A stretch of 64,000 nucleotides of DNA from a virus (taxonomy: Duplodnaviria; Heunggongvirae; Uroviricota; Caudoviricetes), in the IMG/VR virus record IMGVR_UViG_3300045988_158256, one strand, 5' to 3'. The position numbers and the translations under genes were made by a program. This document shows, piece by piece, positions 20,687 through 23,055 of the stretch (positions are counted from its first letter, which is position 1; each line of letters begins with the position of its first letter). The notes beneath the pieces were generated by a model that worked only from the letters and a program-made list of their open reading frames with translations, was not told the DNA's origin and made no database searches.

Positions 20687-22057
20687 GTGCTAATGTCTGC
20701 ATCCCCTCTTGAATCCATGCCAAATTCCCTTAGTGCAGAACAAGCTGTACTTGGTGGCTTAATGCTTGATAACTGCCGCTGGGATGAAGTGGCAGATCGT
20801 ATAGTTGCTGATGATTTTTATACCAGTGCTCATCGTGAAATTTTCAGTGAGATGGAGAGGTTATTAAGTCATGGCAAACCGATTGATTTGATAACACTTG
20901 CTGAAGCACTTGAACAGAACGGTAAATTAGAACGCGCCGGTGGTTTTGCGTACCTTGCGGAGATGTCAAAGAACACGCCCAGCGCGGCAAATATTTGTGC
21001 TTATGCGGATATCGTTCGTGAACGCGCGGTTGTTCGTGAAATGATTTCCGTCGCAAATGAAATAGCCGAAGCTGGATATGCGCAGGATGGCAGGGGCAGC
21101 AATGAATTGCTGGATATGGCCGAGCGCCGCGTTTTTGAAATAGCTGAAAAACGACAAAAGAGCGGTAGTGGTCCAAAAGATATCGCCAGCATTCTCGATG
21201 CAACGGTATCTCGCATAGAAGAGTTGTTTCAGCGACCGCATGATGGTGTAACGGGGCTTGATACCGGATTTACCGACCTCAATAAGAAGACGGCAGGACT
21301 TCAGCCGTCCGATCTCATTATTGTCGCCGCCCGCCCATCGATGGGGAAGACCACGTTTGCGATGAATCTCGTCGAAAATGCCGCAGTCCGTAACGATAAG
21401 CCCGTATTGGTTTTTAGCCTTGAGATGCCGAGCCACCAGCTGATGATGCGCTCACTGGCTTCTCTTGCACGCGTTGATCAGACTCGTATTCGGACAGGGC
21501 AACTTAACGACGAGGATTGGGCGCGGGTTTCTGGCGCAATGGGTATTCTGTTGGACAAGCAGAATATTTTTATTGATGACTCAAGCGCCCTGACACCTAC
21601 AGAGCTTCGTTCCCGCGCTCGTCGTGTTTATAAAGAAAATGGTGGTTTGAGCATGATTATGATCGACTACCTGCAACTTATGCGCGTCCCCGAGCTGCAA
21701 GATAACCGAACGCTGGAAATTGCCGAGATTTCTCGCTCACTGAAGGCGTTGGCGAAGGAATTACAAGTACCGGTGGTGGCATTGTCACAACTTAATCGAT
21801 CGCTTGAACAGCGTGCGGACAAACGACCGGTAAATTCAGATTTACGTGAATCAGGAGCAATTGAGCAGGACGCAGACCTGATCATGTTTCTGTATCGCGA
21901 CGAAGTTTATCACCCGGATAGCGAAATGAAGGGCATTGCCGAGGTAATTATCGGAAAGCAACGAAATGGCCCAATTGGCACGGTGAGATTGGCTTTTAAC
22001 GGCCAATACTCACGGTTTGATAACTATGCTGGTGCTGACTGGCAAGAGGATTATTAA
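20687..22057 (+). CDS. ban: replicative DNA helicase, DnaB-like
   Basis: N-terminal AEQAVLGGLMLDN DnaB motif; Walker A GKTTFAMN; 456 aa. Confidence 0.9.
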   Translation: MLMSASPLESMPNSLSAEQAVLGGLMLDNCRWDEVADRIVADDFYTSAHREIFSEMERLLSHGKPIDLITLAEALEQNGKLERAGGFAYLAEMSKNTPSAANICAYADIVRERAVVREMISVANEIAEAGYAQDGRGSNELLDMAERRVFEIAEKRQKSGSGPKDIASILDATVSRIEELFQRPHDGVTGLDTGFTDLNKKTAGLQPSDLIIVAARPSMGKTTFAMNLVENAAVRNDKPVLVFSLEMPSHQLMMRSLASLARVDQTRIRTGQLNDEDWARVSGAMGILLDKQNIFIDDSSALTPTELRSRARRVYKENGGLSMIMIDYLQLMRVPELQDNRTLEIAEISRSLKALAKELQVPVVALSQLNRSLEQRADKRPVNSDLRESGAIEQDADLIMFLYRDEVYHPDSEMKGIAEVIIGKQRNGPIGTVRLAFNGQYSRFDNYAGADWQEDY

Positions 22058-23055
22058 TGCAATGGAATGAGGAAAAGCCGATGAACATCCTGATCATTGG
22101 GCGAAAATTTGAAGCTATCAGTGATGTGAAAACATATACGGAAATGTGGGCTTATAACCTGGCCTGCGCCTTTAGTGAGGCAGGGGTAACATTGCAATAC
22201 CATCGTCCATATTCCCCTGGCGTCGAAAGCCCGGAGGATTATGTTGAAGCTGTGTTGACTGCTGCGACCGCATGTTCTGCGAAGGCCATTTTGGCACCAG
22301 GATTGAGGTATTTTACTACGGTACCCAGGGAAATAGGCATGCAACTGTGTCGCCGATTCTCTGGATGGGTAGCCCAGGTATATGACGGTTCTATGCTGGA
22401 TTCGGCACCAGTCGATATTACTTTTACTGTCCGCGATGATACCTGGCGGTACCTGGATAATCCCGGCAGGTTAGAGCGTCATAATCGTTTTAACAAACAT
22501 GTTGGATGGGCAGCGAATCAGGAGCTGTTCCATCTGGAAACCAAAACGGACGATGTTCTGCGTATTTTTGTAGACCACGCTGCATTTGATGTTAGTGGTT
22601 TTGATCACTCCTTAAGTATCCTTATGAACCTTCAGCGTCTGACCGTTCCGTATGAGGCCAGAACGTTGACTGATGACGGATTGGTTACCATTGAACCGGG
22701 GAATATTTCGGTAACTCCATACAGGCGGACGCCGGTGCCAGCAACCGAATTTGCAGCTGAATTGCGTAAGAGTGACGTTTTTATCGTTACGCATCCCGAA
22801 AGCCTTGGATTAACTGTTCTTGAGGCGGCAATGTGCGGGGCGTTGGTATTAACGCCTCCCGATTGCCTTCCGCCAGATCGCCTGGCTTTGGTGAACCATA
22901 TGGTTATCAAGTCGCGGATTGATTGGGATGAGGTTATTGCTCGCGTTGATCGCGTGAAAAATGCTGAAAAGGTCCAGTGTCACACCTGGTCGGCAATTGC
23001 GGAAAAGATGCTTGAGACGTTTATCACGCAGAAACCGTCGTGCGGTAACGGATAA
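22057..23055 (+). CDS. GT-B fold glycosyltransferase (GT4-like)
   Basis: N-terminal MNILIIG strand and C-terminal HPESLGLTVLEAAMCGALVLTP (E-x7-E) motif; start overlaps ban stop (TAATG). Confidence 0.55.
   Translation: MQWNEEKPMNILIIGRKFEAISDVKTYTEMWAYNLACAFSEAGVTLQYHRPYSPGVESPEDYVEAVLTAATACSAKAILAPGLRYFTTVPREIGMQLCRRFSGWVAQVYDGSMLDSAPVDITFTVRDDTWRYLDNPGRLERHNRFNKHVGWAANQELFHLETKTDDVLRIFVDHAAFDVSGFDHSLSILMNLQRLTVPYEARTLTDDGLVTIEPGNISVTPYRRTPVPATEFAAELRKSDVFIVTHPESLGLTVLEAAMCGALVLTPPDCLPPDRLALVNHMVIKSRIDWDEVIARVDRVKNAEKVQCHTWSAIAEKMLETFITQKPSCGNG

Follow-up and report, generated by a model that had tools for sequence, protein, structure and literature searches.

Bacteriophage P1 is a workhorse phage whose plasmid-prophage relatives are common in Enterobacteriaceae, and its genes dbn, pmgO, pmgP, and pmgQ have gone without a function for two decades. 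In the reference P1 genome (NC_005856), dbn (P1_gp078, YP_006544) lies between ban and the baseplate gene 5 and carries the label "function unknown, possible glycosyltransferase." Its counterpart in P7 is named glt, "putative glycosyltransferase"; RCS47 has "putative glycosyltransferase, Dbn"; and the RefSeq version of the RCS47 record has "glycosyltransferase family 4 protein." Among described glycosylation systems, Gtr systems, which are expressed in lysogens, consist of a membrane GT2 enzyme (GtrB), a flippase, and a periplasmic GT-C enzyme. Mycobacteriophage glycosyltransferases decorate virions, and Maf-type enzymes with an MptE domain O-glycosylate flagellin with ulosonic acids activated by cytidine monophosphate (CMP). 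Here we analyze dbn in a 64,000-nucleotide stretch of viral DNA (Caudoviricetes; IMG/VR record IMGVR_UViG_3300045988_158256), which as a whole is called the window below. An earlier note on this DNA, made from its letters, had drawn attention to a glycosyltransferase gene directly behind a helicase gene.

The window is a P1-type phage (99% identity). Over positions 20600-23800, which span ban, dbn, and gene 5, its DNA is 99.1% identical to that of reference P1 and 98.5% identical to that of P7. The ban-dbn region has the following layout.

20687..22057, + strand: ban, upstream gene of the same operon, encoding a DnaB-like replicative helicase (Pfam DnaB_C, 5e-108; DnaB, 2.7e-35); 99% identical to P1 ban.
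22055..22059, + strand: TAATG junction; the ban TAA occupies 22055-22057, and base 22057 is also the first base of the dbn ATG.
22057..23055, + strand: dbn open reading frame (ORF), long form, 332 amino acids, as annotated in reference P1 (PHROG 2518 at 1e-239 over residues 1-332).

The earlier note had described an ORF right after ban whose ATG overlaps the ban stop codon, and direct reading of the junction bore this out. The note had left unanswered whether this is the gene that follows ban in P1. It is that gene: with P1 dbn it has in common a location between ban and gene 5 and the TAATG junction (unchanged in both reference P1 and P7), and the two proteins are 98% identical, with six amino acid differences. 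Three points mark dbn as a real gene and not a chance ORF: its product has 98% identity with P1 Dbn; the protein family, which is distinct and of modest size, counts 378 cluster representatives (E <= 1e-3, among 1.84 billion); and the ratio of nonsynonymous to synonymous substitution rates (dN/dS) of the gene is 0.115 among 114 P1-like copies. Both its identity and its glycosyltransferase-like nature were already in public records. PHROG 2518 has no assigned function, and in the literature we searched, no study addressed the function of dbn or of pmgO, pmgP, or pmgQ.

We examined the predicted structure of Dbn and the conservation of its residues. Two segments of the gene are of particular relevance.

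22792..22857, + strand: HPESLGLTVLEAAMCGALVLTP segment with the E248-x7-E256 motif, in the C-terminal Rossmann domain; the nucleotide-sugar site in GT4 enzymes.
22573..22578, + strand: codons D173-H174 (VDH), at the start of the C-terminal domain; an invariant family signature in two alignments, with a presumed role.

An AlphaFold2 model of Dbn, built on 18 homologues, had a mean predicted local distance difference test (pLDDT) score of 89.2 and a predicted template-modeling (TM) score of 0.86. The modeled protein has two halves of alternating strand and helix elements, consistent with the two Rossmann-like domains of the GT-B fold. A Foldseek search of the PDB with this model returned 82 matches at E <= 1e-3, and the best 50 of these 82 were GT-B enzymes, many of them GT4, or the homologous uridine diphosphate N-acetylglucosamine 2-epimerases. 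The top matches included GlgM (6tvp; 4e-9), BshA (3mbo/5d00), PimB' (3oka; TM score, 0.66), and BA1558, and WaaB (5n7z/5n80), an enzyme of the lipopolysaccharide (LPS) core, was also among the best 50. The best viral structural match was a Tupanvirus glycosyltransferase (TM score, 0.77 to 0.80). The sequence on which the earlier note had based its GT4 assignment is present at residues 246-267, where E248-SLGLTVL-E256 supplies the E-x7-E motif of CAZy GT4 and PF00534; the motif aligns with those of 8xsg (4.5e-5) and MshA (3c4q). Across 98 diverse family members, E256, G261, D173, and H174 (numbered from Met1) are invariant, and D110, G150, W151, D183, T245, H246, E248, S249, and G251 are at least 90% conserved. 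A 19-residue Kyte-Doolittle scan found no hydrophobic segment above 1.6 in Dbn, and hence no transmembrane segment. The fusion partners recognized in the family were a methyltransferase domain and further glycosyltransferase domains, with no others. We conclude that Dbn is very probably a glycosyltransferase.

By sequence, the family is divergent. The HPESLGLTVLEAAMCGALVLTP segment is the only part of Dbn that aligns to solved glycosyltransferases and to Pfam PF00534; family-profile searches of the PDB likewise aligned the E-x7-E segment alone and could not place the family. KtrA, which appeared in those searches, was rejected as a spurious Rossmann match. An NCBIfam search gave nothing significant, and Pfam gave no match at E <= 1 to an N-terminal Glyco_transf_4-type domain (PF13439/PF13579), the corresponding half of the model being Rossmann-like. 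We file Dbn as "GT-B fold, GT4-like" and not as a proven GT4 member.

The main finding concerns the genes with which dbn travels. In four phages, pmgO-, pmgP-, dbn-, and pmgQ-like genes are contiguous: two lambdoid/P2-like metagenomic phages (L003 and L010), a third phage contig in which the order differs (L004), and the isolate Escherichia phage EP_H11. The cassette is tight, lies on one strand, and consists of a Dbn homologue, two MptE-like ORFs, and a protein of ~210 amino acids with a DxD motif. PmgP and Dbn genes are also adjacent in IME392. The Dbn homologue of L003 is 55% identical to that of the window. We built hidden Markov models (HMMs) from the genes beside dbn homologues in other phages and ran them on the window. 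They identified pmgO, pmgP, and pmgQ in a block about 6 kb from dbn.

28990..29652, + strand: pmgO, MptE-like, named "alpha-2,3-sialyltransferase" (neighbor HMM, 9e-48; 39% identity to the L003 neighbor; PHROG 4603).
29550..30176, + strand: pmgP, encoding a second MptE-like protein (neighbor HMM, 7e-83; 55% identity to the L003 neighbor).
30158..30850: ppp, a lambda-like phosphatase gene between pmgP and pmgQ, absent from that place in the Citrobacter relative L009.
30847..31548, + strand: pmgQ, encoding a DxD-containing putative GT-A-type glycosyltransferase (neighbor HMM, 1e-63; 47% identity to the L003 neighbor).

These four genes, plus an RdgC/hrdC-like gene in L004, are the only ones common to the window and the cassette loci. 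PmgQ matches PHROG 1962, "glycosyltransferase," and has a weak match to the GT8 enzyme AgtA; PmgO, PmgP, and PmgQ are all predicted to be soluble, without transmembrane segments. P1 has the minus-strand tail and baseplate block 5-6-24-7-25-26 between the two halves of the four-gene set, each of which is preceded by C1 operators in reference P1. The Citrobacter P1-related plasmid-prophage L009 has pmgP-pmgQ-pmgR-pmgS-...-dbn, in that order, all on one strand and within 6 kb. Each of the 22 Dbn-positive records in the phage collection also holds PmgP. The P1 relative D6 (MF356679/NC_050154) has kept ppp and gave no match to Dbn or PmgP; judging by gene content, the PmgO/PmgP/PmgQ/Dbn module can be lost whole or in part. 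Given that this neighborhood is conserved in unrelated genomes, we consider it reasonably likely that Dbn works with PmgO, PmgP, and PmgQ.

The bacterial relatives of Dbn suggest what such a set might do. A trio of genes encoding a 320-amino-acid glycosyltransferase, an MptE-like protein, and a Dbn-like protein occurs at four loci, in Colwellia (L005-8), Brucella pseudogrignonensis (L013), and two metagenomic contigs (L208 and L212). Export genes are present at two of the four, of the KpsM/T/D type in Colwellia (L005) and of the Wzm/Wzt type, an ATP-binding cassette (ABC) transporter, in Brucella. At the L212 locus (AZIG01001597.1, 96..11708), the trio is interleaved with genes for KdsA, a KdsB-KdsC fusion, a KpsF/KdsD isomerase, and KpsC, all relating to 3-deoxy-D-manno-octulosonate (Kdo); a GT1 enzyme and an APH-like kinase are also encoded there, and the MptE-like gene scores above the Pfam cut-off. 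From its gene content, L212 is a compact capsule-type locus for a Kdo glycan with a complete CMP-Kdo supply, and it could serve for determining what chemistry the Dbn family performs. Weak WaaZ_KDO_III signatures were found in the Colwellia MptE-like protein and in one PmgO homologue. Two reports indicate that Maf-type enzymes with an MptE domain can use CMP-Kdo (PMC11339370; bioRxiv 10.1101/2020.06.03.131540). Because the PmgO fold search gave only generic matches, a reading of PmgO and PmgP as ulosonic-acid transferases is only suggestive. Two scans of IMG/VR yielded almost exclusively P1-like contigs and no new dbn contexts, and a scan of a genome collection contributed one useful bacterial locus.

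We propose that Dbn is a soluble, cytoplasmic GT-B enzyme of ~36 kDa that would transfer a sugar from a nucleotide-sugar donor, as GT4 enzymes do, and that, together with PmgO, PmgP, and PmgQ, it makes up an accessory glycosylation set of four proteins in which it is the one with the GT-B fold. As the presumed last gene of the C1-repressed ban operon, dbn would be expressed when the prophage is de-repressed, and its place behind the helicase gene would be an accident of P1 genome history. The set would build or extend a short glycan, probably one containing Kdo together with a residue derived from a nucleoside diphosphate (NDP)-sugar and added by Dbn. Every E. coli host supplies the Kdo donor, and if the module transfers Kdo, the MptE-like partners would be likelier catalysts than Dbn. 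The set would act at the membrane's inner face on a lipid-linked acceptor in the envelope, either a capsule-type glycolipid or the LPS inner core, and the outcome would be an altered cell surface during phage development. We infer the envelope-glycan role from the bacterial pairs of Dbn-like and MptE-like genes in ABC-transporter polysaccharide loci, at least one of which would make CMP-Kdo. An envelope glycan as the acceptor is a tentative assignment; for the chain of proposed steps as a whole, we put the chance of its being right at a little under even. The earlier note had listed DNA, a virion component, and a host surface polysaccharide as possible targets. Gene context favors a surface glycan or a protein and disfavors DNA; we rank an envelope glycan as most likely, a virion protein next, and DNA as unlikely. 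The full statement is that pmgO, pmgP, pmgQ, and dbn form a split glycan module of four enzymes that moves among temperate phages, is related to enzymes of bacterial Kdo capsules, and has no part in morphogenesis; the module would use host CMP-Kdo and an NDP-sugar and would either remodel the LPS inner core or another lipid-linked glycan as the phage develops or decorate virions. We regard that statement as somewhat doubtful, yet if it is true, a previously unrecognized surface- or virion-modification system exists in a classic phage.

Several observations weigh against this proposal. The glycosyltransferase activity of Dbn is a prediction, and we know of no report of surface conversion by P1. 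Dbn scores 25.0 bits against Pfam Glycos_transf_1 (PF00534), for which the cut-off is 26.4, and matches only profile positions 83-169; 13 of the 98 family members reach this profile at E <= 1e-3, none with a higher score than P1 Dbn. The earlier note had named failure to find a GT-B fold by profile search as the result that would count against it. The fold was recovered by structure, from the confident AlphaFold2 model and its GT4 matches in Foldseek, while the Pfam profile score stayed below the cut-off. The Arg/Lys diphosphate-binding segment of GT4 enzymes is not recognizable in the Dbn sequence; together with the invariant Asp-His, this means that the donor could be unusual. The Pfam MptE-like matches of PmgO (5e-5) and PmgP are also below the cut-off. 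PmgO gave a confident AlphaFold2 model, and its fold search returned generic Rossmann matches, the best, with a TM score of about 0.4, being a GT29 sialyltransferase and thiamin pyrophosphokinase. For this reason, the label "sialyl/Kdo-transferase-like" for PmgO and PmgP rests on sub-threshold Pfam scores, on PHROG and RefSeq names, and on homologues that score above the cut-off. PmgP occurs without Dbn in phi456 (OR339795), Cronobacter phage JK004 (MZ188976), Citrobacter phage phiNP (OR565852), and two Xanthomonas jumbo phages, and on the evidence of these five records the four-gene set is not obligatory. Finally, the genes are dispensable in the laboratory. CRISPR interference (CRISPRi) knock-down showed dbn to be non-essential (PMC10695390), and its authors cite a knockout study that likewise found dbn dispensable. 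In a study that combined liquid chromatography-tandem mass spectrometry (LC-MS/MS) of the P1 virion proteome with 29 single-gene knockouts, 24 of the knockouts plaqued normally and kept antirestriction (PMC9024508). Neither knock-down nor knock-out of dbn, pmgO, pmgP, or pmgQ gave a plaque phenotype (PMC10695390, PMC9024508), and antirestriction was unaltered in the normally plaquing knockouts (PMC9024508).

The best-surviving alternative is that the four-enzyme set glycosylates phage proteins of the capsid, tail, or fibers instead of a host glycan, following the pattern of Maf enzymes and mycobacteriophages. The terminase, portal, and capsid genes of L003 and L010 follow closely after the cassette on its strand, and a Q antiterminator precedes it. 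The late promoter LPpmgL is upstream of P1 pmgO-pmgQ, and the labels given to these genes are "putative morphogenetic" in the P1 record and "head morphogenesis" for their counterparts in the P7 record. The reported capacity of Maf enzymes to use CMP-Kdo also counts in favor of this alternative (PMC11339370; bioRxiv 10.1101/2020.06.03.131540). Against a protein target, the bacterial relatives are in polysaccharide export loci and not in flagellar or protein-glycosylation loci, and dbn itself sits in an early, C1-controlled operon. The LC-MS/MS study of the P1 virion mentions neither glycosylation nor Dbn, PmgO, PmgP, or PmgQ, and its knockouts plaque normally, although glycopeptides are easily missed by such an analysis (PMC9024508). 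We consider modification of virion proteins unlikely, though worth keeping in view.

A second alternative separates Dbn from the set. Dbn alone might take a host protein or a small soluble molecule as its target, for example as a metabolic or counter-defense moron, with its link to pmgO, pmgP, and pmgQ reflecting shared ancestry in a mobile block and no common chemistry. Several of the best structural matches of Dbn are GT4 enzymes acting on small molecules (BshA, a tetrahydrobiopterin glucosyltransferase, and GlgM), the five phage records with PmgP and no Dbn fit such independence, and in Citrobacter-type elements dbn is coupled to two other ORFs of unknown function. Set against this, no fewer than three unrelated phage lineages and four bacterial loci hold the pair of Dbn-like and MptE-like genes, and no fused domain in the family points to a small-molecule pathway. 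PADLOC returned no match for Dbn, PmgO, PmgP, or PmgQ, which leaves a role in defense without support, and Dbn had no match to the Pfam GT4-conflict family (PF20706). Independent action of Dbn on a small molecule or host protein is therefore quite improbable in our estimation.

We next consider how dbn is expressed. A census of the junction covered 114 full-length P1-like dbn copies, representing 69 nucleotide alleles. Two further features were defined.

22081..23055, + strand: dbn, probable functional form, 324 amino acids, with a Met9 start (MNILIIG...) and GAGGA at 22069-22073.
23076..23102, strandless: hairpin rich in G+C and bordered by runs of A and T, located between the convergent dbn and gene 5, identified by RNA folding.

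The ATG codons at 22057 (Met1) and 22081 (Met9) are in frame, and each has a GAGGA sequence 6 to 7 nucleotides upstream. The window-type junction was found in 100 of the 114 copies. Ten others have an unrelated 101-amino-acid ORF (PHROG 12809) between ban and dbn, whose start overlaps the ban stop codon and whose stop overlaps the Met9 ATG (5699..6004 in L084; also in L085, L086, L088, L089, and L094); in these ten, Met1-Pro8 do not exist. One more copy reads ATG-TAA at the Met1 position. We take Met9 as the probable working start because most Dbn homologues begin at that position and because it is the only possible start in these 11 natural variants. Thus, by comparison of alleles, Met9, 24 nucleotides after the ban stop codon, is a conserved start and probably the one used. 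The 1-nucleotide overlap exists in the DNA and may not be the start in use, and strict stop/start translational coupling of ban and dbn, as the earlier note had it, is possible.

We found no terminator or strong promoter between ban and dbn. In the annotation of reference P1, C1 operators precede the operon, and the sigma-70 promoters predicted to serve dbn fall within ban. It is likely that dbn is cotranscribed with ban from the C1-controlled ban promoter. The hairpin downstream of dbn has a folding energy of -17.6 kcal/mol (z = -3.7; 0 of 200 shuffled sequences as stable) and overlaps the gene 5 stop codon. A simple scan for consensus terminators missed it, and it was found by direct folding; it is a probable two-way terminator that would end the ban-dbn transcript.

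The earlier note had regarded a sugar transferase coexpressed with the replicative helicase as an odd pairing. Outside the P1/P7 lineage, in the unrelated phages and bacteria examined, Dbn homologues never adjoin a helicase (DnaB) gene, and dbn of the Citrobacter element L009 lies among the pmg genes instead of behind a helicase gene. Given these placements and the insertion in 10 of 114 P1-like contigs, a functional meaning of the pairing is not supported: the adjacency of ban and dbn is, from comparative gene order, a lineage-specific juxtaposition and not a functional unit. This is a caution against reading function from the adjacency. The pairing would be explained by a further alternative, in which Dbn glycosylates phage DNA to evade restriction in the manner of the T-even phages. 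dbn adjoins ban and is likely cotranscribed with it, and the T4 alpha- and beta-glucosyltransferases also have a GT-B fold. Yet P1 DNA is routinely cut and cloned, and we know of no hydroxymethyl-pyrimidine pathway in P1, for which no systematic search was made. The comparison with phage DNA glucosyltransferases that the earlier note had proposed gave no T4-type enzyme among the best 50 PDB matches of Dbn or among its Pfam matches at E <= 1. The bacterial homologues are in capsule or O-antigen loci, and the normally plaquing knockouts, which include dbn according to the citation in the CRISPRi paper, are unaltered in antirestriction (PMC9024508). Lacking similarity to the T4 enzymes, a conserved link to replication, and an antirestriction phenotype, and in view of the polysaccharide contexts, we rejected DNA glycosylation by Dbn as extremely improbable.

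That dbn might be a decaying passenger gene without a current function is suggested by its dispensability in two independent screens and by two damaged copies. In P7 glt (L002, NC_050152, about 3025-3030), W31 has changed from TGG to TGA, a nonsense mutation that the window copy lacks; the P7 record annotates a shortened 287-amino-acid product from a downstream start, and P7 glt is probably a pseudogene. One metagenomic copy (L211) is frameshifted. A premature stop is absent from all 114 full-length copies, the dN/dS of dbn is similar to that of the essential gene 5 (0.090; 0.054 for ban), and the residues of the catalytic motif are wholly or almost invariant in a family with 378 cluster representatives, and on these grounds we dismissed decay, too, as having next to no chance of being correct. 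We conclude that dbn is dispensable in the laboratory and is maintained in nature under purifying selection.

Some further observations concern the annotation of these regions. The first ~20 residues of PmgO (28990..29055) have pLDDT values below 55 and are missing from homologues (~80 to 87% query cover), so that the true PmgO start is probably further downstream. In EP_H11 (L234, OP688485), the pmgP-like ORF of the cassette, at 6394..7032, is unannotated; the record has a gap there between a coding sequence that ends at 6436 and one that starts at 7001. pmgM (28248..28826) has a VRR-NUC nuclease domain (Pfam, 3e-4, just below the cut-off; same name in RefSeq), and its "morphogenetic" label is doubtful. 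Upstream of ban, at 19259..20303, a 78-amino-acid ORF and a 275-amino-acid SPFH/band-7-type lipoprotein-like ORF take the place of P1 tciA-tciB-tciC; MH422554 and related records share this variant, with the annotation "putative SPFH domain protein." The ban operon region also has tandem genes for tRNA-Asn and tRNA-Thr (18373..18526) and, just upstream of ban, a tRNA gene with anticodon CAT (20331..20406) that ARAGORN calls Met and that the P1 annotation calls trnI (tRNA-Ile2).

What is new here is the Met9 start, the evidence for selection, and the link of dbn to pmgO, pmgP, and pmgQ and to Kdo-type polysaccharide loci, which provides a testable hypothesis. In comparison with known systems, Dbn shares with the T4 alpha- and beta-glucosyltransferases (GT63/GT72) that it is a phage-encoded GT-B protein, and there is no sequence similarity or top structural similarity between them. 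GtrABC systems of the P22/SfV type, and serotype conversion by O-acetylases, resemble the set in being phage-borne, accessory, and non-essential and in having a surface-glycan role, which for the P1 set is the one proposed here. Unlike the Gtr proteins, Dbn has a GT-B fold in its model and no strongly hydrophobic segment, and its three partners are also predicted to be soluble. Moreover, being behind C1 operators, dbn, pmgO, pmgP, and pmgQ should be repressed in lysogens, unlike Gtr. With the retaining GT-B enzymes of CAZy GT4, Dbn shares two Rossmann-like domains, the E-x7-E motif, and a soluble or peripheral cytoplasmic nature (Foldseek E values, 4e-9 to 1e-6; TM scores, 0.55 to 0.66). It differs from them in sequence (10 to 13% identity), in being ~40 to 60 residues shorter, in its invariant Asp-His, and in a PF00534 score below the gathering threshold. 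The Kdo transferases of GT99, GT107, and GT140 do not resemble Dbn, and none was among its best 50 structural matches. A likeness in context is to ABC-transporter-dependent, kps-type Kdo capsule and O-antigen loci, such as those with the beta-Kdo transferases KpsC/KpsS, WbbB, or KrkA: bacterial genes of the Dbn family lie inside loci of this kind, beside an MptE-like gene.

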